Source: Promethearchaeota archaeon
GTDB lineage: Archaea; Asgardarchaeota; Lokiarchaeia; Sigyniarchaeales; SOKP01
DNA length: 64,000 nucleotides
NCBI GenBank assembly: GCA_048940445.1
Contig: JBHLON010000010.1
Coordinates: 139-64,138 of the forward strand
Reading direction: 5' to 3'
Positions 474 through 63,691 of this stretch are shown one piece after another. The notes below the pieces were generated by a model. That model saw only the letters and a program-made list of their open reading frames with translations, was not told the origin of the DNA and did not search any database. Within the stretch, counting starts at the first letter, position 1. Every line of letters starts with the position of its first letter. The position numbers and the translations under genes are program-made.

Positions 474-1727
474 TTATACTATCCGAACCAGAGTTGTATG
501 GCAAAATTCACATCTAATCGCCCCCTTCTTTGAATCTTTTTGAGTTAAAGACTCTTTGAGTTGAATACCGCAATATGGACAATTTAATTCATGAATTTTG
601 GCTCTTAATTTTTCAAACAGCCATAGTGGAATCTCATTTTTGAAGAACCAATTTGGTAAGTTGCTTAAAAAGTTGGAATTCTCGAACACAATGTCTAGTT
701 CTTCATCATTAAGGTAATTCAAATATCCTTGATTGATTAGATATAAAACAACAGAAGGATAGCCACTTTCTAAACGTAAGGCAATTTCTTCTTTGAATAC
801 TTTATTAGCAAGGGGATCTCCAGCCTTTACAAGAGCCTTTAATAACGGAAAAGCTAAATTTCTGTGTAACAAATTTGAAGAGTAATTGTTTTCATACCAC
901 GCCTGAATGTTAGAGCAATGTGCCCAAAATTCAACTTCGGGAGAGATACTAAATTTAGAAGCCCCTTGTTGTTCCATTGAGGTATCTAAGATTTCTGCAG
1001 CTTCATCTATTGACTCAATCTTATCATAGTCTCTGATTTTATCAAGTTGAAGATTTAGCAGTAGATATTTGCATTGTCGAAATAGAGAGCCTCCCACATA
1101 TATATTTGTTTTTTCATTTTCCAATCTAAGCTTTAAGTAATTATTAATTATGAATTCTTTTCTTATATATACAAAGGGGTTCTGCTCCCCATTGCAATAC
1201 TGAAATATCATGTTTACCAAAGTTTGAAAAGCTTGGTTAACATTTTGTTCATTTTCAAGAGGAATTTCTGCGAATGCTGAAAGGTGATAGCTTTCTGCCA
1301 ATGATCTTCCTTGTTCCCATGATACTTCTCTTGTTTTATCTTTTGAATTAACTGATGAACCTAAGAGCATGATTGGGATGTCTCTGGTTCTTTGTCTTAT
1401 TAATCTGATATGATCTGCTAAGCAATCTAAAGATCCCGAATTCATGATATCATATAAAAATATAGCACCTAAAGCTCCACAAGAATACATTGGTATAAGA
1501 GATCTGAAGCGTTCTTGTCCTCCTACTAACCAAATCTGTAATTTGATCATCTTACCAGATGATTCTACCGATTTAACATGAAATTCTACACCAATTGTCA
1601 TTTCATAGTCTTCTTTAAAGACGTTATGACAATAATTTGCTTCCAGAAATTGTTTGCCAACAACCTCATCACCCATGATCATTATTTTATAAAGATAATC
1701 ATACATTGGCATTTTATGAATTTCCAA
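474..1727 (-). CDS. Rab-like small GTPase-fold protein with degenerate nucleotide-binding motifs, C-terminal helical domain and zinc ribbon
   Basis: 417 aa. The first ~170 aa align by eye to the paralog at 8323-9117 (YDYLYKIMIMGD, MTIGVEFHVK, KLQIW..GGQERF, GALGAIFLYD). G1 is GDEVVGKQ (no Ser/Thr) and G3 is WLVGGQE (Asp lost). NKxD is replaced by GSSVNSKD and SAK by AEIP. The C-terminus ends in CPYCG-x17-CEFC. Confidence 0.75.
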   Translation of the reverse strand: MEIHKMPMYDYLYKIMIMGDEVVGKQFLEANYCHNVFKEDYEMTIGVEFHVKSVESSGKMIKLQIWLVGGQERFRSLIPMYSCGALGAIFLYDIMNSGSLDCLADHIRLIRQRTRDIPIMLLGSSVNSKDKTREVSWEQGRSLAESYHLSAFAEIPLENEQNVNQAFQTLVNMIFQYCNGEQNPFVYIRKEFIINNYLKLRLENEKTNIYVGGSLFRQCKYLLLNLQLDKIRDYDKIESIDEAAEILDTSMEQQGASKFSISPEVEFWAHCSNIQAWYENNYSSNLLHRNLAFPLLKALVKAGDPLANKVFKEEIALRLESGYPSVVLYLINQGYLNYLNDEELDIVFENSNFLSNLPNWFFKNEIPLWLFEKLRAKIHELNCPYCGIQLKESLTQKDSKKGAIRCEFCHTTLVRIV

Positions 1728-1780: not shown

Positions 1781-4700
1781 TTATGAGTGTTCTGATAAGG
1801 GCAGAACAATTGATTTCTCAATAAGGGATTCAAGGGCTTTAATTACCAGATCTTTTTTCTTCTCATGAACCTGTTCGATTGCATCCTTTAAATAAAAGTC
1901 AGGCTTAACGTTGGTCATGGATATGATCACATTGAGAAGTCTTAGTTCCATTTTATTTAACTCTCCTTCTTGCTTTATTCGATTAATGTTTTTCATTGTA
2001 GTTAATTTAAAATATTCTTTATAATAGAGCTGTAAATGTTCATCTAAAAGCTGTGGCAATTTTTTATTAAATTCATCTAAGTCTCCATTAAAGGCTTCAA
2101 ATTTTTCTGAAAAGATTGAACTTATCGATAGTAGAAGTTCTGAGGTTTGAGCTTTTAGTCTTTCAGAAGCTTGTTTTTTTAGAATAAAAACAATTCTAAT
2201 ATCCTTATTTTCACATATGAATACATTAAAAAATCTAAAATCGAGACTCATCATTCTATCAATTCCACTTAGATTTTTTGGAGTCTCAATGGAATAGTCT
2301 TTAATGTGCTCATCCCCTACAATTCTTTCACCTAACATAGTAATTGCTTGAATAAAACCACCGAGCAAATCATCTTGAAATCTTTGTTCTGAGAAATAAC
2401 TTTTTGAATAAATCCCCAAACCGCTTCCTTCCATTGATAGCGTAATTGCTTCAATATTCATGACATCTCTATATTTTTGGGTTTTTGCGAGAAGCTCAGA
2501 TTCCTTTTTCCTTTTTCGAGGTAAAATAACATAACTTCTCAAGCCAATTATTCCAAATATCCCTATAATTCCAATTAATCCGAATACAACAAACCAAAGT
2601 GGAACATTAGATTGGGGTAATACTTCTTGTGTGATGACTATAACAAAGGAATATTCTTTAACCTCGTATAATGAATTTTCCTTCGAAATGGTTAAATTCA
2701 TTCGATAACTTCCTTGAATATTGACTGGAAGCCTCAATTCTAATTCATAAGTTCCAGAACCGAAGTAGTCAAAATAACCGTTACCAAATCTCCACGAGTA
2801 GAAAACTGTTGCATTTTCAATATAAATATGGGAATTGCTTTCAGTTAAGTTAACTTTAATTGTAATTACTTCTCCAACGAAAGCTTCAAGTGAGTCTTTA
2901 AAACCCATCGTATTTACAGTTATGGGTATATTATTAATGTTGACAATGATAGTTTTATAAATAGTAGTGTATCCTGCTTTTTGCAACTTAATTGTCGCTG
3001 CATAGGTCTTAACAGAAAGAGACGTTGTGTTTAAGCGCACTACAAATCCATATGAGTCGGTTATGACTTTATATGCGGCATCCCAGCTAACAGTACAATT
3101 TGCTCCAAGGATTAAGGTTCCTGAGCTTTCGACTGTGTAATTCACTCTAATATCATAAACTTCATTAAGATCCGCAAATATTGAAGTTCTATTTACATTG
3201 CCTTCCGCTTGGATTGGAAATATAGTCATAGCTATAAAACCTGTAGTCGCTTGATAGTTACTCTTATTAGCAAAAATTGTAATAGTATATGTCTCTATAA
3301 TTCCTTGTTTTGGCAAATCCCAAGTAGAGAAATTTAAGGAATACGTACCATTGTTATAATCTGTAATGAAATATGGGTTTTGCCAATTAGTACTTATATT
3401 TGCTTGCGAAATTAAGGTACCAGTAGAGGCTCCAGTTACATTTATCTGACAACTAATATAGTCATTTCCTAAACCACTAATCACTTTCTTTGGAGTCTCT
3501 AAAGCTAATGGTTGAGCTAAAATTTTTAGTTGAACTAAATTGATTGAGGTTTGATTCTCATAATAGCTTTTTGAGGCATTAAATGAAAAATAATAATTTC
3601 CAAGATCGAGAGAGTCTGTATTAATCTCACTGATATAAACGCCAGGTTGATAAGTCATCATTCCAAATGAATCGAATGTAGAACTATAGGTAATAGTCCC
3701 ATAAGCAATTGATGCATTTAGATCAGAATCGATAAATTTTACCTTTAGCAAAAAAGATTCTCCAGCAATCCGTTCTAAATAAGTATCTATTGCAATTAAA
3801 CTCGTTTTATGGATAACATTAAATTTCAACAATTTAATTCCAACTTGAGAGGCGTTTTGGTCGTGATCAGTCCATATAATCTGGGCAGAATATTTTCCAC
3901 ATGTTATATTTTCTACTCCAATAGTTATTTTCGAAAATTCGAATATTCCATCAGCGTCAACTAAAATCTTATCTTCTTGATACATCAAGGTTCCATTTGA
4001 ATAATAAATTTTTAAACTCGCGTTTGTTTCATCTAAATTTGGAATAGATGCTGTATTGATTGTTCCATTTACTTTCAAATCATCTAAGGCGTAGAAAGTA
4101 TTGTTCTGTGCCCAATAACTTCCCGTTCTCCTGTATATATTAGCTTCTTCAACATAATTTGGAGCATCCACTACTACCTTCCAAATTCCATTAGTTACAA
4201 TAGTATTAGGAATCTTTAAAGTTGAATTCCCATATCCAGCTGTCGCTAATACATCATTTATTTTATTAGCACCGTAAGGATTAATTAATTGAGTAACATT
4301 CCAATTAGTTGGTTTTGTTACATTCAAATAATAATCAGTAGAGTATGTACCGGGTATTATGATGGTAAAATACATAGTCCAAGTGGCTTTTGTGTTCGTA
4401 TCGACTTGAAATTCTGATCCTGTAAAACCTAATTGAGTTTTTGTTTGCTTTTGAGATGTGGCCTTTACAAAGAATTCAGTATTTAAGACTATTCTACCTG
4501 AAGAGTTAGAGCTGAAACCAAATAGGTGATATCTTCCATCAATATCACCTTCCCACATATTTTTAAGAGTGATGGTGCCTTCACCTGGACCGATATCGTT
4601 TATATTAGTCCAATCATCATTGGTGATATCATTGATATTGAGATTAATATCGGAAGGTTTTGGAAGGGTCGATAATGAAAGTGTAATATTATCATAAAAT

Positions 4701-5587
4701 AACTGTAAAAATCCAGATGGATTAATTCCAGAGTTTCCGAAATTCACTCCAAATTTTAAGGAAATTTTGCCTGGGAGAGCCATACCATATTGTTCTGGAG
4801 TGAACAATGGTATAGAATCTTGATGGATTTCATTATCGGCAATATTTGATAATTTCTCAGAAAAGGATTGTGAAATTCCATTAACATATAAAGAGAAAAA
4901 AACTTTAGCCCCCCCAAGCCCAGTCATCCAATTAATATCACTGTAAGATGCCCAATACTTAAAATTAATATCCCAATATTGATATGGAATTTGATATCTT
5001 GGTAAATTAAATGTATAATTTACATAAGAATTAAAATTGTTCCATGGTGTTCCTGGTTCATTAGCATCTTCAAATCTAATGTATATTGAGTCATTGTCTC
5101 CTTCTGGATTGTTATACCAACCAAAAGTGACATTCTGTGGGCGCTTAGTATAATTGCTCCAATGTGATAAATCTATACCTGTATTAAAGGTTTCATTTAC
5201 CCAAAGTGAATCATAATCATAAATGTTTGAAATATTACATATTACCTCATTAGCTTTCCAGTCTTCAGGAACAATTATAGATGCATTGTCATTATTGTTT
5301 AAATCTAATCCATTATTTGGAAAATCAGCAAAACCATATTCAGTTATATTTTGGGCTTTACCTATCCCAGAATATTGACTTATGGATATATCATTTAGTT
5401 TTAACTCTAAATCCATAGAAGGTGTATCTATTTGATTAAAATTGAAATCTTTCTTATAATTTTCCTCTGATTTCCATACAATTTGATTAGAGAGTAATAA
5501 AATTGATAAGTTTAAGGCAAGTAAAAAGATTACATTTATCCATTTCCTTGTTTTAAATTTCACTTTTTTCACAAGAATTAAGTACAA
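1781..5587 (-). CDS. large single-pass surface (glyco)protein with tandem beta-sandwich-type repeats and a cytoplasmic longin/roadblock-like tail
   Basis: 1268 aa. N-terminal signal anchor (WINVIFLLALNLSILLL). The ~950-aa N/T/Y-rich ectodomain has about 35 N-x-S/T sequons (hand count) and at least four ~98-aa repeats. One TM helix (LWFVVFGLIGIIGIFGIIGL) is followed by RKRKK and a 246-aa tail. The TTG start is uncertain by a few codons. Confidence 0.75.
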   Translation of the reverse strand: MYLILVKKVKFKTRKWINVIFLLALNLSILLLSNQIVWKSEENYKKDFNFNQIDTPSMDLELKLNDISISQYSGIGKAQNITEYGFADFPNNGLDLNNNDNASIIVPEDWKANEVICNISNIYDYDSLWVNETFNTGIDLSHWSNYTKRPQNVTFGWYNNPEGDNDSIYIRFEDANEPGTPWNNFNSYVNYTFNLPRYQIPYQYWDINFKYWASYSDINWMTGLGGAKVFFSLYVNGISQSFSEKLSNIADNEIHQDSIPLFTPEQYGMALPGKISLKFGVNFGNSGINPSGFLQLFYDNITLSLSTLPKPSDINLNINDITNDDWTNINDIGPGEGTITLKNMWEGDIDGRYHLFGFSSNSSGRIVLNTEFFVKATSQKQTKTQLGFTGSEFQVDTNTKATWTMYFTIIIPGTYSTDYYLNVTKPTNWNVTQLINPYGANKINDVLATAGYGNSTLKIPNTIVTNGIWKVVVDAPNYVEEANIYRRTGSYWAQNNTFYALDDLKVNGTINTASIPNLDETNASLKIYYSNGTLMYQEDKILVDADGIFEFSKITIGVENITCGKYSAQIIWTDHDQNASQVGIKLLKFNVIHKTSLIAIDTYLERIAGESFLLKVKFIDSDLNASIAYGTITYSSTFDSFGMMTYQPGVYISEINTDSLDLGNYYFSFNASKSYYENQTSINLVQLKILAQPLALETPKKVISGLGNDYISCQINVTGASTGTLISQANISTNWQNPYFITDYNNGTYSLNFSTWDLPKQGIIETYTITIFANKSNYQATTGFIAMTIFPIQAEGNVNRTSIFADLNEVYDIRVNYTVESSGTLILGANCTVSWDAAYKVITDSYGFVVRLNTTSLSVKTYAATIKLQKAGYTTIYKTIIVNINNIPITVNTMGFKDSLEAFVGEVITIKVNLTESNSHIYIENATVFYSWRFGNGYFDYFGSGTYELELRLPVNIQGSYRMNLTISKENSLYEVKEYSFVIVITQEVLPQSNVPLWFVVFGLIGIIGIFGIIGLRSYVILPRKRKKESELLAKTQKYRDVMNIEAITLSMEGSGLGIYSKSYFSEQRFQDDLLGGFIQAITMLGERIVGDEHIKDYSIETPKNLSGIDRMMSLDFRFFNVFICENKDIRIVFILKKQASERLKAQTSELLLSISSIFSEKFEAFNGDLDEFNKKLPQLLDEHLQLYYKEYFKLTTMKNINRIKQEGELNKMELRLLNVIISMTNVKPDFYLKDAIEQVHEKKKDLVIKALESLIEKSIVLPLSEHS

Positions 5588-7471: not shown

Positions 7472-8344
7472 TTATTCTCTTTCAAAGGAATTTTGAATAT
7501 TACAAATTGAAAAGCCTAATTTCTTATATGTGTGAACAGCAGCATCATTCTCTACTCTTACCGTGATTAAGCACTCCTCTTTTTCTTTAAAAACAGCTTT
7601 CAATACAGAAGAGACTAATGAACTAGCTAATCCTCTATTTCTATAATCTGAATGTGTTCCAACGACCGTTATATATCCCACTTTTTGATACATCCATAAG
7701 CTAGTAATACATACCAACTTCTCTTTCTCAATAATGCCAAACCAAATATTATTTTCATCCATTAAGTTATCATCTAAACTATGATTACCCCAAAATATAG
7801 GATCTGCATTTCTCATGAACAAGACAATCTCTTCTTTATTGCTTTCCTTTAAAGTTTCATATGGATATTTTTCGTAATCCTTTTGTTCTCCTTTTTTCAT
7901 ATCCATACGGTACATTACAATTTCTTTTTTATAATTAGGAAAGAATTTTGCTATAATCGGCTTATGATGTTCAAAACCGGTTATTGAAATTGGGTTGTAA
8001 TTCTCCTCATTCAATAAAAATTCCAAACTTTCATTCGATCCTCTCAATTGAAGCCTGCGATCTTTCCACATTAGGGTCATTCCTTGAATCTTATCATTAA
8101 CATCTAATGCTAAGAAAATTTCAGTATCTTTAGGGTATTGAACATAATCAGCATGGAAGAAAAAATATTCCGCAAAGTTATCTTTAATGAAATCATAAAA
8201 TAATGGTTCATTAACTGGAGTTAGATGAACTGATCGTAATCTTTCATGTATCATATTTCCTCTTAAGAAATGAGATGCTAAAAGAATTTCGGATTTCTTA
8301 TTTATCAAAAATAAGCTAAATTCTATGCTGCCCTTTTTCTGCAA
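7472..8344 (-). CDS. GNAT family N-acetyltransferase
   Basis: 290 aa. The C-terminal acetyl-CoA motif A is VVGTHSDYRNRGLASSLVSSVL, followed by VENDAAVHTYKKLGF. The annotated ATG overlaps the upstream GTPase stop by 22 nt. An alternative Met lies 30 codons downstream. Confidence 0.8.
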   Translation of the reverse strand: MQKKGSIEFSLFLINKKSEILLASHFLRGNMIHERLRSVHLTPVNEPLFYDFIKDNFAEYFFFHADYVQYPKDTEIFLALDVNDKIQGMTLMWKDRRLQLRGSNESLEFLLNEENYNPISITGFEHHKPIIAKFFPNYKKEIVMYRMDMKKGEQKDYEKYPYETLKESNKEEIVLFMRNADPIFWGNHSLDDNLMDENNIWFGIIEKEKLVCITSLWMYQKVGYITVVGTHSDYRNRGLASSLVSSVLKAVFKEKEECLITVRVENDAAVHTYKKLGFSICNIQNSFERE

Positions 8345-9117
8345 TTATGCGTAAATCTTTCCGAGATCGTGAGTTCCTTACCGCAATATGGACAATAGTT
8401 TTTACTCTCTGGTTTATTTACATGTGTTTGTCTTTCAAGTTCTGAGCTCGGAGGCCTAAAGATAGAAGATAAAGAGTTTCTTTCATTAAGTGGCAGTCTG
8501 GGTTTAGATTCAATTGTAGATGGTTCTTTTAAAGTGATCCTTCCAGGACTAAATACAGTTTCATTAGCTATTAATTTGTCGGGTACGCCCTCCCCAATCA
8601 TAAGACAAGTCATGATATAAAAGCAATCTCCTACTCCATCGCCAGTTTTAGCCGAAGTTTCCATATAATAAAGGTTAGCATTCCTAGTAAAACGATTAAT
8701 TTCACTAATAGATACAGTTCTTTCGTCTGATAAATCACTTTTATTGCCTACGAGTAATAGAGGGATATTAGCGGCAGTGTTAGCCCGTATTTCTTGGATC
8801 CATCGAGGAAGATGCTCAAAACTAGCATAGTTAGTAAGATCAAAAACTAAAACAGCTCCTAGAGCTCCTCGATAATATATAGGCCTGATTGTACTAAATC
8901 TTTCTTGGCCTCCTGTATCCCATAGTTGCAGTTTGCATCTAATTACACCTTCATATGTGTCTATAGGAATTGTCTTAACATGAAAATCTACGCCAATTGT
9001 CATCTTATAGTCTTCAGTAAATAGGCCAGTTGAAAATCTTACGGTTAATGCTGTCTTACCGACTCCACCATCCCCTATAGCAATTGTCTTAAAAAGATAA
9101 TCATAATTGTCTGCCAT
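8323..9117 (-). CDS. Rab-like small GTPase with C-terminal zinc knuckle
   Basis: 264 aa. G1 GDGGVGKT, switch I TIGVDF, G3 KLQLWDTGGQERF, YYRGALGA, LVFDLT, G4 GNKSD, G5 TSAK. An ~80-aa S/P-rich linker leads to CPYCG-x11-HNC at the C-terminus. There is no CAAX or CC motif. Confidence 0.9.
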   Translation of the reverse strand: MADNYDYLFKTIAIGDGGVGKTALTVRFSTGLFTEDYKMTIGVDFHVKTIPIDTYEGVIRCKLQLWDTGGQERFSTIRPIYYRGALGAVLVFDLTNYASFEHLPRWIQEIRANTAANIPLLLVGNKSDLSDERTVSISEINRFTRNANLYYMETSAKTGDGVGDCFYIMTCLMIGEGVPDKLIANETVFSPGRITLKEPSTIESKPRLPLNERNSLSSIFRPPSSELERQTHVNKPESKNYCPYCGKELTISERFTHNCRKRAA

Positions 9118-10451: not shown

Positions 10452-13400
10452 TTGAGAATTTTAGTATTAAGCCACCGGAATCCATTTTTTCCTCCCTATA
10501 TTTTTCAAAAAGTGCCAGAAACAATTGAACGGGACGACCTTAAACAAGTTCCAACATTAATAGAGCTTTATGAAGATGGATTTTTTATCCATATGTTTGG
10601 AACTTTTAAGACAGCTAATCTATTGTTTGATATTCCGAGTAAATATTCAAGAACAAAAAAGGAGCGCCTTTTAATATCAATTATAGTTGACAATAAGAGC
10701 AAAATTAAAGCCACATTAGCTCAAGAGCTTTTAGAGGGTTTCGTTGAAGAATTTAAAAAAATTAAAAAGGTTTACAAAGCATTTTATGTAGACTCTCAAG
10801 TGTATCAAGGAGATCCAGATAAATTAGAAAAAATCAAAACACTTTTAAATACTTTTAACGCAACTTTTCCGGAAGAACAAGTTATATTTGAACAAAAAGA
10901 AGCAAAAGTATTAATATTTGGGCTTTCGCTAGCAGGAAAAACGACTATCATTAGAACAAGAAGAAAAACGGTATCAAAAACGATATTTCCAACTATAAAT
11001 GTAGACATTTCTAGAATCTTAGTAAATAATGTATCGTTATTAACTTATGACACTCCAGGTCAGGTAAAATTTAAGGAAATATGGAAACCGTATTTGAAAG
11101 GGCAAGATGGTCTAATTTTCGTATTAGACGTTTCAGATAATTTAAAGTTTCCGGATGCCCGTAAATTGTTGCATGAAGTAGTAGGTATACCAGAGTTGAG
11201 TGAACTACCTCTTCTTATTCTATTTAATAAGATTGATTTAGAAGAACCAAACGTCAGTGATCTAGTAGAAGCTATGGGATTGGAAAAACTCGAAAAAATG
11301 CCAATGAAGTACTTTTTAACAAGTGGAGTTAATAACATAAATGTTGATGAAGCGTTTAATTGGCTTTCACTTAAAATAGCAGAAAGAGTTGAAACGTATA
11401 CTCCAAGAAGGGAGATAGGGATAATATTTTGTCGATGGGATGAGAATCTAGGAGTTAAGATTGAAGCTGTGTACCCTGAAGATGCTTTCGAGAATCCGGA
11501 ACTGATTTCTGTAAAAAGCTTTTCAATTTCACAATATGTTTTTGGAGGAGAGGAATTTAAGCGAGCCATGGTAATTTTACCTTTTCCTCATTTGAATTCA
11601 AATGCTGCGATTTATTTTGATTCAGTATCTGATGAGAGTATTAGAGGGGGTTTATTACCTTTATCATTAATAATTTATTACAATGATAGGATTCCTAAAA
11701 GCATTATTAACCAATTCAATCATTTCGTTCTCAAACAATTTGAAATTATAAAAAATAATTATTTAAATAATGTCCAGGTATTAGAACTTCTTAAAGAAAC
11801 TCATAGTACCATAATTCATCAAATTGATGCGTATAAACCCTCAATTGAAGCGCTCAAGATTGCAGAATTACGATATGAGGTTTTATTCAAAGCAGCTCGA
11901 GACGCGATTTTAATAATTGATAAAAAATCGGGGATTATAATAGATGCAAATAAGCAAGCAGAAGAATTATTCCAACGCCCTTTTGAGGATTGTATTGGAT
12001 ACCATTCAAGCCAATTATTAAGTGATATTATTAACATCGATTTTAATGAGGAAATATTTGATGAACTTAACAATCCATTTCCTTTAAGATTAGACGTTGT
12101 TGATAATTCAGGCAACCTTATTCCTGTTGAAATAAGTGTAAGTGAAGTCCAAATGGGAGGGCAAGTCTTTATTCAATACATAATTCGAGACATTAGTAAA
12201 AGAATGGAAGCTGAAATTAAATTAAAGAATTCTGAAATTAGGTATCGTCATCTTTTTAAAGATTCACCTTTCTTTATACTTTTAATTGATCCAAATGGTT
12301 CAATTGTTGATTGTAATCCTGCTTTAGAAAAAGCTTTAGGATATACAAGAGAAGAGTTAATGGGAAGAAAGTTTGTAGACCTTTCACTTATTCATCAAAA
12401 TTATCTTATAGAGGTTCTTAAAAGATTTAAAAAAGAAGAAAGAAGTAGAATTTTTCCACCATTAGAAATTCAACTTTTTCAAAAAGATGGGAATCTCATT
12501 TGGGTAAATATGCAATCGTCTTTTGTAGAGATTGGGAATGAAACGTTTTACCAAATTATTTGCCATGATGTAACAGAACAGAAAAGAACAGAACAGGATC
12601 TCAAGAAAATTTCTAAATTACAAGCTATAATTGCGAGAATTATTTCAAGATTTGTTGGTATAAAAGATTTCAATCAAGCTATTAATGATTCTCTTAGAGA
12701 ATTTGGAGAACTAATTAATGCAGCACGAGCTTATATTTACATTTTTAGTAATACGTATAATTTCATGAAGAGACATTATTTATGGTATGGTAAATTGCTT
12801 TATCCCCAAATTGAATTACCTCAATTTATATCAATCAACAACTTTCCATGGGTAATTGAGAAATTAGATACTTCTGAATATTTTTATGTTAATGATATTA
12901 CTATCCTTCCTGATCAGGCAAAAAATTTCAAAATATTTCTTGGAGATCAAAAAATTGAAAACTTTTTGCTATTTTCAATAAGAATTGATGACCATTTAGA
13001 AGGTATAATGTGTTTTGACAATCTTTCAGAAAAAGACTATTGGAATGAAGAAAATCTTGAAATATTGGGAATTTTTTCTGATATCCTTAAAAATGCAATA
13101 TTGCGTAAGTTAGCAGAAGACAATTTGCGTATTAGTGAAGAATCTTTTCATGATGAGTTTGATAGAGAATACTTTTATAAAGAGCTCTTTGTAAATGATA
13201 TGAATAATATCATTAGAAATCTTCAATCATCAATAGATGATTATATCAAACCAATTAATCAGATAGCTACAAAGCTACCAAATGAACTATTAGATAATGT
13301 GAAAAGTCAATGTATAAACGCACAACTCTTAATCTACATAATACAAAAATTAACGTTGCTTAACGAAACTAAAATTGTAATTGAAAAGGTAGATCTAAAT

Positions 13401-13823
13401 AGAGTGATTGATGATGTCATAGATTTCATTACCAGTACCTATACTAACAAAAAAATAAATATACTTGTTGAACATCCAAATGAGCATTTATACGTAAAGG
13501 CTGATAAGTTCCTAATAGATATTTTTGTTAATTTACTTATTAGCTCGATTAGATATAGCAAAAAACCTTCAATTGAATTTAAAATTGTTATCAATAGAAG
13601 TCAAGAAAATAACATAAATTATGTTAAAATTAAATTCATAGATTATAAGAAAGAGATATTAAATGTAGAGAAAAACTTGATTTTTAAGAAAGAAATAAAA
13701 TATGACAGCAAAATTAAAGAAATAATTTTAGGTTTTCTCTTAGTTGAACGCATCTTAAATAATTATAAAGGGAGAATATGGGTAGAGAACTACAATTTTG
13801 TCATTTCAATTCCTGAAGCATAA
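10452..13823 (+). CDS. multidomain Arf-like GTPase / PAS-PAS-GAF / degenerate histidine-kinase fusion protein
   Basis: 1123 aa with a TTG start. The Arf/Arl-type motifs are GLSLAGKTT, PTINV, YDTPGQ, FNKIDL and NWLSLKI (aa ~150-310). PAS-like segments start at LRYEVLFKAARDAILIID and IRYRHLFKDSPFFILLIDPNG. A GAF-like segment spans aa ~720-885. The C-terminal HK-like core has N-box VNLLISSIRYS but no H-box His and no DxGxG. Confidence 0.85.
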   Translation: MRILVLSHRNPFFPPYIFQKVPETIERDDLKQVPTLIELYEDGFFIHMFGTFKTANLLFDIPSKYSRTKKERLLISIIVDNKSKIKATLAQELLEGFVEEFKKIKKVYKAFYVDSQVYQGDPDKLEKIKTLLNTFNATFPEEQVIFEQKEAKVLIFGLSLAGKTTIIRTRRKTVSKTIFPTINVDISRILVNNVSLLTYDTPGQVKFKEIWKPYLKGQDGLIFVLDVSDNLKFPDARKLLHEVVGIPELSELPLLILFNKIDLEEPNVSDLVEAMGLEKLEKMPMKYFLTSGVNNINVDEAFNWLSLKIAERVETYTPRREIGIIFCRWDENLGVKIEAVYPEDAFENPELISVKSFSISQYVFGGEEFKRAMVILPFPHLNSNAAIYFDSVSDESIRGGLLPLSLIIYYNDRIPKSIINQFNHFVLKQFEIIKNNYLNNVQVLELLKETHSTIIHQIDAYKPSIEALKIAELRYEVLFKAARDAILIIDKKSGIIIDANKQAEELFQRPFEDCIGYHSSQLLSDIINIDFNEEIFDELNNPFPLRLDVVDNSGNLIPVEISVSEVQMGGQVFIQYIIRDISKRMEAEIKLKNSEIRYRHLFKDSPFFILLIDPNGSIVDCNPALEKALGYTREELMGRKFVDLSLIHQNYLIEVLKRFKKEERSRIFPPLEIQLFQKDGNLIWVNMQSSFVEIGNETFYQIICHDVTEQKRTEQDLKKISKLQAIIARIISRFVGIKDFNQAINDSLREFGELINAARAYIYIFSNTYNFMKRHYLWYGKLLYPQIELPQFISINNFPWVIEKLDTSEYFYVNDITILPDQAKNFKIFLGDQKIENFLLFSIRIDDHLEGIMCFDNLSEKDYWNEENLEILGIFSDILKNAILRKLAEDNLRISEESFHDEFDREYFYKELFVNDMNNIIRNLQSSIDDYIKPINQIATKLPNELLDNVKSQCINAQLLIYIIQKLTLLNETKIVIEKVDLNRVIDDVIDFITSTYTNKKINILVEHPNEHLYVKADKFLIDIFVNLLISSIRYSKKPSIEFKIVINRSQENNINYVKIKFIDYKKEILNVEKNLIFKKEIKYDSKIKEIILGFLLVERILNNYKGRIWVENYNFVISIPEA

Positions 13824-18221: not shown

Positions 18222-18776
18222 ATGTATGATGCAATCTTCAAAATTGTTGTTTTTGGTGATGTTGGGTGCGGGAAAACAACCTTAACTCAGCGTTTTTTAA
18301 CAAAAAACTTCATCCCAAATACCTTTAAAACAATTGGAGTCGACTTTAGTACCACGAGCTTCATGGTTGATAGATTTAACGTTAAGTTAATGATCTGGGA
18401 TTTTGGTGGAGAAGAGAGGTTTAGGTTCATCTTTCCTCAATATGTGCTTGGAGCAATGGGCGGAATTATGATGTATGATATAACAAATCAATCTTCACTC
18501 TATCATTTAAGTGATTGGTTATCGATCATTAGTGATACGAAGCAGATATTTCCAATCATTTTAGTTGGTGGAAAGTCTGATTTAGAGAGCAAGAGAGAAG
18601 TATTATTCAATAAAGGCAGGAAGAGCGCAAAATTAATGGGATTGGATGACTTTATAGAGTGTTCTAGCAAAACAGGGGTACATGTAGAGAATGTGTTTGT
18701 TAGTTTAACTAGATTAATGTTATGTAATATTAATATTAAGGGAATCCCTGGTTCATTTCTTATTCCCAATATATGA
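18222..18776 (+). CDS. Rab/Ras-like small GTPase (divergent G3 and G4)
   Basis: 184 aa. G1 GDVGCGKT, switch I TIGVDF, G3 WDFGGEE (Glu at the catalytic Gln position), G4 GGKSD (Asn to Gly), G5 SSK. There is no C-terminal Cys motif. Confidence 0.85.
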   Translation: MYDAIFKIVVFGDVGCGKTTLTQRFLTKNFIPNTFKTIGVDFSTTSFMVDRFNVKLMIWDFGGEERFRFIFPQYVLGAMGGIMMYDITNQSSLYHLSDWLSIISDTKQIFPIILVGGKSDLESKREVLFNKGRKSAKLMGLDDFIECSSKTGVHVENVFVSLTRLMLCNINIKGIPGSFLIPNI

Positions 18777-22340: not shown

Positions 22341-22757
22341 TCATTTTTTTTGTATTTTTTCAACTTTAAAAATTGAAAACGTTCCATAAGCTTTTGCAAC
22401 AAGAAGACCTTCTTTTTTAATCTCTGATTCAAGAGATCCTATCGATTTTCCTTTATGGATCACTTTGGTATCACACAGAATTGTTCCTTCTTTTACAGAT
22501 TTAAAATAGCTTATTTTGATTTCAACAGTTGCACATAGCTCATCATTTTCTAATAGAGAATACAATGCTGCACCCATACCTGTATCTGCCATTGAATATA
22601 GTACTCCGCCATGTACAACTTTATGGGGATTAAAATGATTTTCATTTATTCTTAAGGCACACTGGGAATAACCTTCTTCAAATTTAGTAAATTCGATGCC
22701 TAACAAATCCCCAAATTTATGAAATCCTTTCAAATTCATAGGAAATGGTTTGGGCAT
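22341..22757 (-). CDS. PaaI-type hotdog-fold thioesterase
   Basis: 138 aa. The HGGVLYSMADTGMGAA motif is typical of PaaI/YdiI thioesterases. Confidence 0.75.
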   Translation of the reverse strand: MPKPFPMNLKGFHKFGDLLGIEFTKFEEGYSQCALRINENHFNPHKVVHGGVLYSMADTGMGAALYSLLENDELCATVEIKISYFKSVKEGTILCDTKVIHKGKSIGSLESEIKKEGLLVAKAYGTFSIFKVEKIQKK

Positions 22758-22928
22758 AATTACTAAAATTCGCTATTATTATAAATAAATTTTTATCGAA
22801 ATTTAAAAGGATAATATTATTATGTTATAAAAATGGAGTAATCTTTTGATTGAGAGTCATGAAAGAAATAAGAAAAACAATTCAATAAATAATAAAAGAA
22901 AAGAATAAATAAATTTTAAAAATGCAAA

Positions 22929-23567
22929 TTATACTATCTTAGATTCTTCTTCGATGTTTATAGCTTCAGCTTTTTGTTTGACATTTGAGACTGCAGTTAG
23001 TATCTTTTCATGGTATACTTTTTCAATTTCTACCATATTACGGAGAACTTTCTGTATTGTTTCTAATTTTATCTTATTAAATTCTTCCGCGGCAGTTTTC
23101 GCTTCATTTTCTTCCTTTTCTGCTTTTTGTTTTGCGGTCTTTAAGACAGTCTCAGCATTTTCTAATTCCCCAGGTTTTAATTTTTCCTTTGGTTTATTTT
23201 GAGCTTTATTAAGATTTTTCTCAGCTTTTTCAACTTCTTTAACTGCTTTTGATGCTTCGTCTTGCTCGGATTGTAATGTTTTCAAATGTGTAATCAAATT
23301 ATTCAAAGGAGCAATATATTGCTCTCTTAACTTTGTTACTTTTTCTTTGCGTTCATTTTCAATGATTTCAAAAGTTTTGGCTAACGAACTCATTGCTTCT
23401 CCTAATGAAGGAGTTTCTGTTTCAGCATAACTTTTTAATGCTGTTACAGTTTTGCTTATATCTTTTGTTACATCTTCCTCTGCCTTTATGTAATGATTGC
23501 TCTCTTTAACCAGATCAGTGATCTTATCACTTGTCAATCCTAAAGCATCCATAAATTTCTTAAACAA
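22929..23567 (-). CDS. all-helical K/E-rich protein, BAR-domain-like (tentative)
   Basis: 212 aa. A TTG start is preceded by GGTGA 5 nt upstream. The N-terminus MFKKFMDALGL is amphipathic. YIAPLNNL and EKVYHEKIL resemble BAR helix 2 and helix 3 signatures. Confidence 0.6.
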   Translation of the reverse strand: MFKKFMDALGLTSDKITDLVKESNHYIKAEEDVTKDISKTVTALKSYAETETPSLGEAMSSLAKTFEIIENERKEKVTKLREQYIAPLNNLITHLKTLQSEQDEASKAVKEVEKAEKNLNKAQNKPKEKLKPGELENAETVLKTAKQKAEKEENEAKTAAEEFNKIKLETIQKVLRNMVEIEKVYHEKILTAVSNVKQKAEAINIEEESKIV

Positions 23568-23698
23568 TCAATTCACCTATGAAAAAAAATGCAAAAATTC
23601 TATTTAAAAATTACCTCAATAACTTAAAGATTAATTTTGAGAGGAAGAACATAACTGCTAACAAAAGTAAAGAAAATAAAAAAAAAAGAATATATTCA

Positions 23699-24499
23699 CT
23701 ATTTTTTTAAAGACTCTTCTCTTACCGATAATTTTATCTTCCATACAATTAAAATAATTAAAGCAAAGATAGTAATCATTATGGTTAAATAGATCTGTAG
23801 TTCTCCGATATTAAAGAGCCAAACAAGGTTATTCGTAATATGGAAAAGAATGGTTACAAAAGCACTCCCTCCGGAGCTATTAAAGAGGAATGTAAGTATT
23901 ATAGAACCCATAAATAAACTATATAGCCATCCAAATAACATATCAACAGAAAAGTGATATAAAAACATAGGAAAATGCCAAAATGCCCATCCTATTGTGA
24001 GAATAATGGTGGCGATTAATGGATTATATTTTTCTTGCAATTTAGGTAATGCATACCCTCTCCATCCAATTTCTTCAAACAAACCATAGGAAATGGCTCC
24101 AACCCAAATCCATAAAAAAACTGAAAGCGGATTAGAAATTCCATTGTCAACAAGGTATCCAATTAGGTTAATTAAGTTTCCTGTAAAGAGGAAGTTAAGT
24201 AAAATACTTAATAATAAGAAAAATGGCATTATTAAAGCTGAAAATAGAATCCAAAAAGGGCCTACTCTCCACTTAAAACTCGTTTTTCCTAATTCCTTAA
24301 GTCCTCTTTTTTTAGCAGAAATATAAGCTACTATAATAGCTGAAATAGTTGGTCCAAGTGCCCCTAAAAAATGCCAATTCATATTTACTGATAAAAGCCC
24401 AAAATTTGCTAAAATTAATGGCAAGACTAAAATCCACGTTGATATCCAAGCTATAGTAAAATAGCTTGCTATAGGATGTTTTTTAATCACATTCATCAT
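23699..24499 (-). CDS. CPBP family intramembrane glutamic endopeptidase
   Basis: 266 aa, multi-pass. It has FEEIGWRG, FWHFP and FHITNN, the three CPBP motifs. Confidence 0.8.
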   Translation of the reverse strand: MMNVIKKHPIASYFTIAWISTWILVLPLILANFGLLSVNMNWHFLGALGPTISAIIVAYISAKKRGLKELGKTSFKWRVGPFWILFSALIMPFFLLLSILLNFLFTGNLINLIGYLVDNGISNPLSVFLWIWVGAISYGLFEEIGWRGYALPKLQEKYNPLIATIILTIGWAFWHFPMFLYHFSVDMLFGWLYSLFMGSIILTFLFNSSGGSAFVTILFHITNNLVWLFNIGELQIYLTIMITIFALIILIVWKIKLSVREESLKK

Positions 24500-36284: not shown

Positions 36285-37205
36285 ATGTTAGAGACGGCAG
36301 GAATCAAGATAAAGAAGATAACATGCCCAATGTGCGGAAAAAAATATGTTCCTAAATTTTTTCATCGTGAAAAAATGAATTATGAACTTGAAGCTCCGAT
36401 TTATAGATTTAAAATCCCTAAATTTAAAAAATCAAACAATCATGCTCGCCCGAATAGTATTATTCGGCGTTCTTGGGTAACTTATTGCCCTAAATGTAAA
36501 TATATTATCAAGTTTGCGGCAGAAGTAGGAAAAAAAGAATTATTAGCAGATTTCAGCTCACTTTTCCATCTTAAGGAATTTAAAGAGAATGGGAATATTT
36601 ATGAGTATAGCTTTTACAATTATGAACAACCTTATACTGATGCTTTATTTTATAATAAAAAACTCCTTAAATTTCTGGAAAATAGTATTTATAATGCTCT
36701 TGAAGATTTAAAGTTGGCACATTGGGGAAAATTGTACAAGATGTGGAAGAAGGAACAAACTATTGATTCATTTAAATTTCTAATTAGGTTCTATTCATAT
36801 CTATTGAACAAAAATCATGTTCATGATGCTAAAATAAGTAATGAAAAATTTTTAGACACAATTCAAGGATTAGAGATTTCAGATGATTTAAAGAAAGACT
36901 TGTTAGAAATTAAAACAATAAGAAACAAGATAATTTATGAATATTATGAGTTGAATAAAGATGATGAAAAATTCATCCATAACACTTTCACTAATTTAGT
37001 GTTTGAATTAGCTTTCAATAAATTGAAACTTTTAGGTTTAGACGGGATCTATAATAAAAAAGACGCAGATACAATAGATAGACAATTCCTTTACTCTGAA
37101 TTAAAAAATGTGTTTTCCCATTATTTTGAAGATCAGATTGGACTTTCAGAGTTTCTTAATGAATTTGTGATTTCTTTACTTAATAAGTTAGAAATAACTC
37201 TATAA
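36285..37205 (+). CDS. zinc-ribbon protein with C-terminal helical (HEPN/DUF4145-like?) domain
   Basis: 306 aa. CPMCG...CPKCKY at the N-terminus. The helical C-terminal region contains LLEIKTIRNKIIYEY. Confidence 0.5.
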   Translation: MLETAGIKIKKITCPMCGKKYVPKFFHREKMNYELEAPIYRFKIPKFKKSNNHARPNSIIRRSWVTYCPKCKYIIKFAAEVGKKELLADFSSLFHLKEFKENGNIYEYSFYNYEQPYTDALFYNKKLLKFLENSIYNALEDLKLAHWGKLYKMWKKEQTIDSFKFLIRFYSYLLNKNHVHDAKISNEKFLDTIQGLEISDDLKKDLLEIKTIRNKIIYEYYELNKDDEKFIHNTFTNLVFELAFNKLKLLGLDGIYNKKDADTIDRQFLYSELKNVFSHYFEDQIGLSEFLNEFVISLLNKLEITL

Positions 37206-45983: not shown

Positions 45984-47219
45984 ATGAGTAAGGATTTAAA
46001 AGATTTGATTGATAAGGCTGAAGAAGATCAACAAAGTAAAGCATATTTAGAAAAGACCATCGAGAAATTACAGCTTGAAGTTGATAAGTTAAAAAGCAAA
46101 TTAGATAACGAAAAAATTACATTTAAACCTACGCCTATTAAGCATACTGATGATCTAAGTGACACTCAAGAAATCTTGGAATTAAAGGATATCGTTTTAT
46201 CCCTTAGCAATAAATTAGAAAATAAGGAGCAAGAAAAAGAGATTTTACAAACTAAAGTTAAAGATTTAACAATAGAGTTAGAAGAAGTACAAAAAAAATT
46301 GTTGGATCCATTAAAAGATGAAATGTTTTCTAGAACACAAAATTCATTAAATACACTAATTCAGGATTATGGGCGATTGGAACAAGAAAATAAAAATTTA
46401 AAGAATAAAGTGTTTGAATTATCAAAAGAAATTGAAATTGCAGACGAGACCGTAACATCATACAAGTCTGAAAGTACAATAAATAAACAATTGAATAATG
46501 AAATCGCAACCCTAAGGCAGACTATTTCCAACCTAGAGAGAGCAAATAATTCTCTCTCAACAAATTTGAATTTAATTAAAACTAAACAAGTTTCTGCTGA
46601 AGAACTAGATAGACTTGTTGAATCTCTAAAAAGAAATAATTTACAATTAAAAGAAGAAAATCTAATGCTTAATGAAAAATTAGAAGTTTTAAAGCGAGAA
46701 AAGATTAAAATTGTAAAACTAGAATCTCAAATTGCAAACTTAAATGAAAAGATTGAAGATTTAGAACAAAAAAATAAAGTACTTCGTGAAAAAGACACAA
46801 TTTTATTAGCGAAAACAATAACAGCGCTTCAACCCCATGATAAAAAGGAAATTTCAAAGCCTGAATCTAGCATTTTTAATTTAAAAGGATGGTCAAGCGA
46901 ATCAATTATCGAGGAAGAGAAAAAAACGATCGCCAAGGTCAAAGAATTGTCAACCAATATTACTAATAATGTAATTAAGCCTTATATTTCTGATCCAATA
47001 GTAGAATCGAGAAAATTAACAGAAGAAAAAGCATCAGAAAATGAAAATCTCGAAGAAGAAGATGAGGATATAATACGAAAATGGCAATGCCCTAGATGTG
47101 CAAATTCCAATAAAGCATATATAAGAGAAATAGATGATAAAACACGATTAATTTATGCTTATCCAAAGATATATGCAAAAAAATATAAATGCGGTCAATG
47201 TGGAGCAGAATGGAAATAA
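45984..47219 (+). CDS. long coiled-coil protein with C-terminal zinc ribbon
   Basis: 411 aa. The first ~290 aa are heptad-rich. The C-terminus is WQCPRCANSNKAYIREIDDKTRLIYAYPKIYAKKYKCGQCGAEW. Confidence 0.6.
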   Translation: MSKDLKDLIDKAEEDQQSKAYLEKTIEKLQLEVDKLKSKLDNEKITFKPTPIKHTDDLSDTQEILELKDIVLSLSNKLENKEQEKEILQTKVKDLTIELEEVQKKLLDPLKDEMFSRTQNSLNTLIQDYGRLEQENKNLKNKVFELSKEIEIADETVTSYKSESTINKQLNNEIATLRQTISNLERANNSLSTNLNLIKTKQVSAEELDRLVESLKRNNLQLKEENLMLNEKLEVLKREKIKIVKLESQIANLNEKIEDLEQKNKVLREKDTILLAKTITALQPHDKKEISKPESSIFNLKGWSSESIIEEEKKTIAKVKELSTNITNNVIKPYISDPIVESRKLTEEKASENENLEEEDEDIIRKWQCPRCANSNKAYIREIDDKTRLIYAYPKIYAKKYKCGQCGAEWK

Positions 47220-49238: not shown

Positions 49239-49754
49239 CTAGAATTCATAGAAGCATTTGGTACAGACTCTTTTTTTAGCATAAATTCTTCGAGGAACAT
49301 AGCTTAGTAATCTAGATTTATCTTCAACTTCCTTTATTGCAAAACCAGATGCGCCACATTTGGGACACTCTCTTTTATGTGTGGAAGTATCTGCACTCGT
49401 GGTCACAATTGGATTTTCTGTTTGTCGAATTACTGGACCTTCTACTGTTTGCTGACTATAATAAGGAGTTTGTGTTTGTTGTTGCTCATATTGTTCATAC
49501 TGTGTTCGTTCATAATTCTGATATTGAGGAGAACTCGGGATTGAAGGCTTAACCTTTTGTTGAGCATAGTAGGGAGATTGTATATTTTCTATCTGAGCTT
49601 TTAATTTTAGATTTTCATTATAAATTTGATATAATTGTTCATCTTTCTCCTTAATAAGCATTTGAAGTTGATTTACGTGATTCTGTAATTCTGAAATTTG
49701 ATAATTAAGTTCATTAATTCTTCTCTCATAATCTTCTATATTTGAAAACATCAT
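49239..49754 (-). CDS. coiled-coil / Q-Y-rich low-complexity / zinc-ribbon protein (C-terminal paralog of 45984-47219)
   Basis: 171 aa. N-terminal heptads, a central region PYYAQQ...QYQNYERTQYEQYEQQQTQTPYYSQQ, and the C-terminus ECPKCGASGFAIKEVEDKSRLLSYVPRRIYAKKRVCTKC. Confidence 0.6.
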   Translation of the reverse strand: MMFSNIEDYERRINELNYQISELQNHVNQLQMLIKEKDEQLYQIYNENLKLKAQIENIQSPYYAQQKVKPSIPSSPQYQNYERTQYEQYEQQQTQTPYYSQQTVEGPVIRQTENPIVTTSADTSTHKRECPKCGASGFAIKEVEDKSRLLSYVPRRIYAKKRVCTKCFYEF

Positions 49755-62677: not shown

Positions 62678-63691
62678 TCAAGATTTAATTTCTTGACCGC
62701 AAAAAGGACAAATTAATACAGCTGCATCAAGCAAATTATTACAAAAAGGACATGTTATTTTTACAATATGGTCATCATCCTTTAGACTTAAAAGAAACTC
62801 ATTAATATTTTCATGGGTAACAATCAAATATTCTCCATCAATCACAAAATTAAATTTTTTCGCCCATTTAAATATTTTATCCGCAAATGATTTTTCATCC
62901 ATTTCCAAGGCATTTCTCATCATATCAAGCTTTATCCTATTAGAAACTTTAATCATCGATTTTATTTTTTCAGTACGTCTTTTTTCCAGTTCCATTAAAC
63001 GAATTTTTTCAGAATCCTTATAAGTAAGCACCTGGTTTAATAATTCCAGAAATTTAACTGTCTTGATCTTATCCCTTATTAAATGATTTAAACGTTTTTT
63101 AATGAATAAAAGAGAAAAAGCGCGATTATTCTTAGTTACAATTTTAATAAATAGATCTGCACTTTTAGATTGCCCTATTATTTCTTTAACTTCCAAAATA
63201 TTAATTTGTTTTAAGTAATCTTCCTTAAATGGCTTAAAAGACACGAAATTTTCAGTTAATAAAATTATTCCCTTGTTCAAGGTAGATTTCCAGTCATTCA
63301 TATTCGGAATACCCTCCCAAAAAGCTCCTTTGGATTCAAAAAGTATAGGCAATTCATTTTTTGCGTACAATCGTGTAATATGCCTAAATAAATCTTCTGA
63401 CAATCTCCTTGAATTTGAATGATAACTATCTCTATTTAAAAGTGGAAAAAATGCATAACAATTATCTTTAATATCTATTAGTTCAATTACTGGAATTCTA
63501 TTTCTACTCTTAATATAAAATCCTTTAATATTTGATAATTTTACCTCATACCTTATTTTATCAATATCAGATTGAAAAGATATTTTACTTTCATTTAATT
63601 GAATAGTCACTCTTGCTCTTTTGGATATAAGAGCTCTATAGGATGGAATTCCAGAGGTAAAATTACCAGATGATTCAAAGTGGATGACCAT
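62678..63691 (-). CDS. protein with internally duplicated N-terminal (PH/GRAM-like?) domains and C-terminal zinc ribbon
   Basis: 337 aa. VIHFESSGNFTSGIP...ISFQ repeats as ILFESKGAFWEGIP...VSFK. The C-terminus is CPFCNNLLDAAVLICPFCG. Confidence 0.55.
   Translation of the reverse strand: MVIHFESSGNFTSGIPSYRALISKRARVTIQLNESKISFQSDIDKIRYEVKLSNIKGFYIKSRNRIPVIELIDIKDNCYAFFPLLNRDSYHSNSRRLSEDLFRHITRLYAKNELPILFESKGAFWEGIPNMNDWKSTLNKGIILLTENFVSFKPFKEDYLKQINILEVKEIIGQSKSADLFIKIVTKNNRAFSLLFIKKRLNHLIRDKIKTVKFLELLNQVLTYKDSEKIRLMELEKRRTEKIKSMIKVSNRIKLDMMRNALEMDEKSFADKIFKWAKKFNFVIDGEYLIVTHENINEFLLSLKDDDHIVKITCPFCNNLLDAAVLICPFCGQEIKS

Follow-up and report, generated by a model that had tools for sequence, protein, structure and literature searches.

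The window analysed here is a stretch of 64,000 nucleotides from a Promethearchaeota archaeon (assembly GCA_048940445.1, contig JBHLON010000010.1, positions 139 to 64,138), with a G+C content of about 30 %. On its minus strand lies a gene for a protein of 212 amino acids, which an earlier note, made from the letters alone, had tentatively read as belonging to the BAR-domain proteins, with an amphipathic helix at its N-terminus. Pfam, a sequence search of the PDB, an AlphaFold2 model compared by Foldseek and a profile-profile comparison all bear out that reading, and the protein is almost certainly a BAR-fold homologue. The gene and the parts of the protein discussed below are as follows.

22929..23567, minus strand: coding sequence of the BAR-domain protein, 212 amino acids, with a TTG start codon at 23565-23567 and a TAA stop codon at 22929-22931 (list of open reading frames)
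23573..23577, minus strand: GGTGA, a ribosome-binding-like motif 5 nt before the TTG (read from the sequence)
23535..23567, minus strand: codons 1-11, MFKKFMDALGL, predicted amphipathic helix at the N-terminus, short and H0-like, with a net charge of +1 (from hydrophobic moment and conservation)
23400..23423, minus strand: ETETPSLG (residues 49-56), turn between helix 1 and helix 2, aligning with CIBAR1 STETPNLK
23304..23318, minus strand: YIAPL (residues 84-88), aligning with CIBAR1 VVEPL; Pro87 is the kink proline of helix 2 and corresponds to Pro167 of mouse FAM92A
23175..23240, minus strand: lysine stripe and tip loop KPKEKLKP (K110, K114, K117, K121, K125, K127, K129, K131), possible site of membrane contact, distal on each arm
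22998..23030, minus strand: EIEKVYHEKIL (residues 180-190) in helix 3, aligning with CIBAR1 TIEMLFHGKAL; H186 corresponds to the interface residue H264
22932..22964, minus strand: acidic C-terminal tail AINIEEESKIV (residues 202-212); I203 corresponds to FAM92A I281, and the hhalign alignment extends through the tail

Pfam matches the protein to a single significant family, FAM92 (PF06730), with an E-value of 7.8e-8 and a score of 32.5 bits against a curated gathering cut-off of 23.6. The match spans residues 18-207 of the protein and positions 33-222 of the 225 in the profile, while a search of NCBIfam returned no meaningful match to the protein. In the PDB, significant sequence matches are confined to the BAR domains of CIBAR1 (= FAM92A; 9uhd and 8ceg), found with E-values of 2.8e-8 from the single sequence and 4.9e-13 from a profile of 45 close homologues. 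The AlphaFold2 model, built on the alignment of these 45 homologues (predicted local distance difference test, pLDDT, 88.4; predicted template modelling score, pTM, 0.75), places helices at residues 2-8, 13-49, 53-124, 134-201 and 205-208, covering nearly the whole length of what had been described as an all-helical protein. Its architecture is that of a classical BAR domain, with three long antiparallel helices in about 200 residues and a helix 2 kinked at the invariant Pro87. Foldseek places FAM92A at the top of the PDB (9uhd, E 2.7e-7, template modelling score, TM, 0.85, root-mean-square deviation, rmsd, 2.3 Å over 204 columns; 8ceg is matched as well), and all 50 listed matches are BAR, F-BAR or I-BAR domains, among them those of APPL, SNX1/5, arfaptin-2, ACAP1, BIN1/2, endophilin and amphiphysin. 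Identity to CIBAR1 is only about 20-24 %. When hhalign compared two profiles, one built from 49 diverse homologues of archaea and the other from 28 eukaryotic FAM92 proteins, the match had a probability of 99.4 % and an E-value of 4.2e-21 across 204 collinear columns. The protein has the three-helix, kinked BAR fold, and its homology to FAM92/CIBAR runs along its full length.

Of the eukaryotic families, FAM92/CIBAR stands closest, but others are related too, because the wider archaeal family also matches other BAR families: among 49 wider archaeal members, Pfam finds FAM92 in 25 (E <= 0.01), BAR_3 in 19, BAR in 14, Arfaptin in 4, Vps5 in 3 and IMD in 3. The relationship is claimed as homology, not as orthology to FAM92 specifically. 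CIBAR1/FAM92A and CIBAR2/FAM92B (PDB 9uhd, 8ceg; PF06730) show the same three-helix kinked fold and collinear full-length homology, and have in common with the window protein the ETETP-x-L turn, the kink proline, the basic tip, the motif I-E-x-x-[FY]-H-x-K-x-L with its interface histidine, and a tail of the form I-[DN]-x-E-E/D. In the 45 close homologues, E51, T52, P53, S54 and L55 of the turn are invariant, as are E182, H186, I189 and L190 of helix 3, I203, E208 and K210 of the tail, and the kink proline P87, the role of which in mouse FAM92A (Pro167) has been described (PMC12269497). The earlier note had laid such landmarks on endophilin-type N-BAR domains. The landmarks themselves are real, but they are not endophilin-specific; ETETPSLG, YIAPL, the lysine-rich turn and E-x-x-Y-H-x-K-h-L are instead those of FAM92/CIBAR. 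There are also differences from CIBAR1: the window protein has no C-terminal extension, ending 11 residues past helix 3 of the AlphaFold2 model, and it carries an N-terminal amphipathic helix, is acidic overall and does not conserve the central concave basic cluster.

The N-BAR proteins endophilin and amphiphysin/BIN1 (PF03114) share the layout of the window protein, in that an amphipathic helix stands directly before a classical BAR helix 1, and their folds match it at TM 0.65-0.77 (1zww, 1x04, 2fic, 4avm). PF03114 is matched by the 14 wider archaeal members counted above (14 of 49) but not by the window protein. Unlike endophilin and amphiphysin, the window protein carries neither an SH3 domain nor any other effector domain, and its N-terminal helix is about 9-11 residues long, where theirs are roughly 20-25. 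Membership of the endophilin-type N-BAR family was considered and is ruled out: the protein has no match to PF03114 at E <= 10, the profile search of the PDB brings up neither endophilin nor amphiphysin chains at E <= 10, and in the Foldseek comparison of folds endophilin comes only in places 33 to 40, with TM 0.65-0.67 against 0.85 for FAM92A. A closer structural likeness is that to the BAR domain of arfaptin-2 in its complex with ARL1 (PDB 4dcn), a very similar compact monomer (TM 0.80-0.87, rmsd 2.1 Å), although identity is only 14 % and the Pfam Arfaptin profile matches 4 of the 49 family members but not the window protein.

The mouse FAM92A dimer is disrupted (abolished or destabilised) by mutating L113, L120, Y127, F256, I257 or H264 (PMC12269497). 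In the alignment, five of these six positions hold similar residues in the window protein, namely V33, Y47, M178, V179 and H186, while L120 corresponds to a small residue, T40. M178 and V179, which align with F256 and I257 (phmmer alignment), lie just upstream of EIEKVYHEKIL. The isoleucine of the tail, I203, stands where I281 of FAM92A packs into the dimer interface (PMC12269497).

Two further features bear on how the protein may meet a membrane. The first is the N-terminus, which the earlier note had called amphipathic. For nine-residue segments, the hydrophobic moment peaks at MFKKFMDAL, where it reaches 0.85 (rank 1 of 204; p = 0.0007 by residue shuffling). Phe2, Phe5, Met6 and Leu9 form one face of this segment, and Lys3, Lys4 and Asp7 the opposite one. 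It stands directly before BAR helix 1 as in N-BAR domains, though it is short. Across the wider family, the median stretch ahead of helix 1 is 20 residues long, with a median best 11-residue moment of 0.66 and a median net charge of +1; the median moment of the background is 0.37, and only 3.3 % of background 11-residue segments reach 0.66. The amphipathic helix is therefore a trait of the family that has been shortened in the subfamily of the window protein. Eukaryotic FAM92 proteins have polar N-termini, and FAM92A1 has been described as having no extra N-terminal helix (PMC11266426). The second feature is the lysine stripe, which by alignment is the strongest conserved basic feature of the protein. 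It occupies the distal part of helix 2 together with the tip loop (the helix 2-3 loop comprises residues 125-133 in the AlphaFold2 model), and its columns are at least 60 % lysine or arginine across the broad family, K127 being so only within the close family. The lysine-rich tip aligns with the tip cluster R201, R203 and R205 of FAM92A, K125 corresponding to R203 and K127 to R205.

Relatives of the protein are restricted in their distribution. A word-seeded search gave 209 relatives, the best 120 of which are 63-100 % identical and about 207-240 amino acids long; the named ones among these 120 belong to metagenome-assembled genomes of Promethearchaeota, Lokiarchaeota, Thorarchaeota and Hermodarchaeota. 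When one genome per species was scanned, 31 loci came up, all of them Asgard. Of 1.84 billion cluster representatives searched exhaustively with a profile, only 121 matched at E <= 1e-3. These comprise single-domain Asgard proteins of divergent sequence, proteins with BAR units in tandem and one HEAT-repeat-BAR fusion, with animal CIBAR/FAM92 and short protist FAM92-like proteins (Mataza, Blattamonas) appearing from E ~1e-9 downward. The single bacterial match, a giant Myroides repeat protein (P0190) hit in 17 stretches, looks like a repeat or compositional false positive; apart from it there are no bacterial or non-Asgard archaeal members among the profile matches. The phyletic pattern is Asgard plus eukaryotes only, as for a 'eukaryotic signature protein'. 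The DNA of the gene itself occurs in sediment and mangrove metagenomes.

Some members of the family have more elaborate architectures. Tandem two-BAR proteins of 441-553 amino acids (P0124, P0127, P0147, P0159, P0253) occur in several Asgard lineages, and the cultured Ca. Lokiarchaeum ossiferum has one of them (P0124); UYP47554.1 of Ca. Lokiarchaeum ossiferum is among the tandem proteins. P0159 has an extra coiled-coil insertion within its first BAR unit, and the HEAT-repeat-BAR fusion is P0160. Such natural tandem fusions argue that two BAR units pair. A single-sequence AlphaFold2 model of tandem P0124 (pLDDT 58.5, pTM 0.28) was too weak to place its domains.

The genes and signals around the BAR gene are considered next.

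474-1727, minus strand: Ras-family small GTPase (PF00071)
8323-9117, minus strand: Ras-family small GTPase (PF00071)
18222-18776, plus strand: Ras-family small GTPase (PF00071; E-values for the three range from 2e-34 to 9e-52)
10452-13823, plus strand: Arf-PAS-GAF fusion of 1123 amino acids, with an Arf domain (PF00025, E 1.9e-33) at residues 146-307, two PAS domains and one GAF domain
22341-22757: 4HBT thioesterase
22860..22928, minus strand: T-rich stretch after the stop codon of the BAR gene, putatively an archaeal terminator-like element (read from the sequence)
23601..23610, minus strand: TTTTTAAATA, resembling an archaeal TATA box, at -43..-34 relative to the start codon (read from the sequence)
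23699-24499, minus strand: CPBP/Rce1-like intramembrane protease (type II CAAX prenyl endopeptidase family), adjoining the BAR gene upstream

The BAR gene stands alone between the protease upstream and the thioesterase, in a neighbourhood of TetR, PNPOx-like, CitMHS-permease, LigB-dioxygenase and PAS-histidine-kinase genes, and this gene order is shared only with the closest relatives. Two long contigs and an all-against-all clustering of the open reading frames of 32 loci revealed no conserved operon partner; only the BAR gene recurs. The arrangement of protease and BAR gene is kept in just two other loci (L004 and L022). The TTTTTAAATA element, also present in the closest relative (L004), suggests that the gene has its own promoter, and together with the T-rich 3' stretch it would fit a monocistronic archaeal gene. 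A different non-coding block, within the 90 nt before the BAR start codon, is strongly conserved in many other metagenome-assembled genomes (TTGATTTTTTATAAAC-N-GTTATAAAC...TAATTTAGATCTCGAA..ATAAAGAAGGTG; L002, L006, L007, L012-L016, L019, L020, L022, L026, L028, L033) and probably holds the promoter and the 5' untranslated region of those loci. The window and L004 differ upstream, with TTTTTAAATA in place of the conserved TTGATTTTTTATAAAC-type block.

The genome had been described as rich in small GTPases, and locally this holds, the window having three Ras-family genes and the Arf-domain fusion. A setting rich in Arf/Ras-type GTPases recalls the pairing of arfaptin-2 with ARL1, and the window protein may be linked to Arf/Rab GTPases. 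Genes for Ras/Arf-type GTPases lie within about 8 kb of the BAR gene in 10 of 32 loci, against about 6 expected by a rough chance estimate that takes small GTPases to be about 2 % of genes, and their positions are not conserved. Full-length orthologues of the Arf-PAS-GAF protein (67 % identity) are encoded at two other loci, L021 (2365-5733) and L017 (449-3817). The fusion gene adjoins the BAR gene in L021, where the two are divergent and 268 bp apart, and lies about 1.7 kb off in L017 and 9 kb off in the window; this proximity, in 3 of 32 loci, is a weak lead towards a link between Arf and BAR proteins. As to the other GTPase genes of the window, the one at 474-1727 carries a C-terminal extension of about 240 residues with no Pfam match, and the end of the one at 8323-9117 is overlapped by 22 nt by a GNAT acetyltransferase gene (7472-8344). 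Five further open reading frames in the window have no Pfam match at E <= 1e-4, at 1781-5587 (minus strand, 1268 amino acids), 36285-37205 (plus, 306), 45984-47219 (plus, 411), 49239-49754 (minus, 171) and 62678-63691 (minus, 337); the N-termini of those of 411 and 171 amino acids look coiled-coil.

The best explanation, which is probable when taken as a whole with its mechanism, is that the gene encodes a stand-alone classical BAR protein of the Asgard BAR family. As to its main job, we lean towards the binding of curved membranes, with a wedge at the N-terminus and tips rich in lysine as the points of contact. Two copies would pair antiparallel into a crescent like that of CIBAR1, and each arm would show the membrane an amphipathic wedge and a lysine-rich tip. 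As both arms would carry a wedge and a lysine cluster, binding should depend on avidity and favour positive curvature, which the dimer may sense or stabilise. It might act, for example, on the protrusions that the membrane forms in cells of cultured Asgard archaea, at their necks or along their shafts. Such a mode would be closer to a minimal N-BAR domain, with wedge and tips, than to CIBAR1 with its basic concave centre.

Several observations weigh against curvature binding as the main job. The protein is slightly acidic (net charge -2, isoelectric point, pI, 6.1), and the median pI of the archaeal family is about 6.0, compared with 8.35 for the BAR regions of eukaryotic FAM92 proteins. In FAM92A, a central concave cluster of R108, K109, R112, R114 and K116 accounts for about 90 % of liposome binding (PMC12269497); these residues align with K28, A29, D32, T34 and D36 in the window protein. 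Over the five basic lipid-binding regions of FAM92A, the alignment keeps 1/5, 2/3, 1/3, 1/3 and 0/1 alignable residues, and the basic concave face that the earlier note had proposed to look for is not evident from it. At about 9-11 residues, the N-terminal helix falls far short of a canonical N-BAR H0, and helix 2-8 is modelled by AlphaFold2 with low confidence. The 32 loci hold no conserved membrane-related or GTPase neighbour, and no RNA runs containing the gene were found.

The acidic family pI and the loss of the central basic cluster would suit the main rival reading, that of a soluble dimeric BAR-fold scaffold or adaptor for small GTPases, in the style of arfaptin with Arl1 or Rac, or for actin regulators, in which membrane contact is secondary at most. 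We regard this as possible but rather unlikely. In its favour, arfaptin-2 bound to ARL1 is among the best structural matches, GTPase genes lie nearby in 10 of 32 loci, the Arf-PAS-GAF gene adjoins the BAR gene in L021 and is near it in L017, and HEAT-repeat-BAR fusions of the P0160 kind exist. Proteins with a BAR domain also turned up in a co-immunoprecipitation with Lokiactin of L. ossiferum, below significance (bioRxiv 10.1101/2025.11.30.690169). For the curvature-binding reading, this detection counts as a sign that such proteins are expressed. However, the conserved N-terminal amphipathic helix and the lysine-rich tips are typical membrane-contact devices, 10 loci with GTPases are near the rough chance estimate of about 6 for so abundant a class of genes, with positions that vary, and no conserved partner gene was found at the 32 loci.

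The wedge of the curvature-binding model depends on where translation begins. In the public annotation, the identical protein (P0001, 207 amino acids) begins at an internal ATG, Met6, as does the entry for the closest relative (P0002), so that they open with MDALGL and MDSLGL; if that were the true start, the protein would have no N-terminal amphipathic helix. The coding strand reads AGGTGA-ATTGA-TTG TTT AAG AAA TTT ATG, with an in-frame TGA as the triplet directly preceding the TTG. Of 22 related loci, 16 have ATG where the window has TTG, 5 have TTG and 1 has GTG; every one of them encodes (M)FKK[FLI], and a GGTG-type (Shine-Dalgarno-like) motif lies at the same distance before the start in nearly all. 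Because start codon, FKK[FLI] and GGTG motif are kept in these loci, the 212-residue reading from TTG is preferred over the public call. With the stop codon directly upstream and amphipathic N-termini that are even longer in more distant members, a start at Met6 is very improbable.

That the BAR likeness is due to chance, and that the protein is in truth an ordinary coiled coil or a hairpin of the ESCRT-III/PspA type, is so improbable that it can be set aside: the sequence is rich in lysine and glutamate, all-helical, and has weak sub-threshold Pfam matches to unrelated helical families, but its FAM92 score exceeds the curated cut-off, the hhalign match (E 4e-21) is collinear across 204 columns, the 50 listed Foldseek matches are all of the BAR superfamily with no ESCRT-III or PspA structure among them, and there is no Snf7 or PspA Pfam match at E <= 10. 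The worry that charged coiled coils align easily by chance is met most directly by a hidden Markov model of 28 eukaryotic FAM92 proteins, which scores the window protein at 82.3 bits; of 6000 shuffled sequences, the 3000 shuffled by residue reached at most 9.8 bits and the 3000 shuffled in heptad blocks at most 18.3 bits, while the protein read backwards scored -4.7 bits. Pfam, Foldseek and the shuffle controls together rule out both a plain coiled coil and an ESCRT-III/PspA hairpin.

Asgard BAR proteins have been reported before. Reviews cite a 'putative BAR domain protein' of Lokiarchaeum (PMC4917890), which a 2025 paper traces to Spang et al. 2015 (PMC11791191). Eme et al. 2023 described 'Vps5-BAR' homologues, counting only proteins with Vps5 as their best Pfam match, and highlighted Vps28-BAR fusions in Thorarchaeia. 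Relatives of the window protein at 63-87 % identity are named 'BAR domain-containing protein [Promethearchaeota archaeon]' by NCBI. The window protein is therefore a further example of the known Asgard BAR proteins; it belongs to a family annotated and cited for a decade and is no new kind of protein. Unlike the Vps5-BAR set of Eme et al. 2023, it is stand-alone, and its best and only significant Pfam match is FAM92. The literature searched (reviews, genome papers and one co-immunoprecipitation mention) contained no biochemical characterisation of Asgard BAR proteins, and no text on their affinity to FAM92/CIBAR, on a family-wide N-BAR-like helix, on the missing central patch or on the tandem fusions. 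To our knowledge, no partner of the Chibby type is known in archaea, although no search for a Chibby homologue was made.

BAR domains belong to the membrane-sculpting machinery of eukaryotes, and finding them in Asgard archaea is relevant to the question of whether the archaeal host was able to bend its membranes before there were eukaryotes. A bolder view, which we put forward as doubtful, is that the Asgard family is a minimal prokaryotic N-BAR, working by wedge and lysine tips and not by a basic concave face, which shapes actin-supported protrusions, possibly under the control of Arf-type GTPases, and from which the FAM92/CIBAR line of eukaryotes, and perhaps classical BAR domains as a whole, descend directly. 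If this were true, one piece of the eukaryotic membrane-bending toolkit would become testable with archaeal lipids. The analysis sharpens the target for such tests, to FAM92/CIBAR-like proteins with an N-BAR-style helix and no basic centre, some of which occur naturally as tandem 'covalent dimers'. Biochemistry with these proteins on archaeal and bacterial-type lipids would tell whether the generation of membrane curvature predates eukaryotes.

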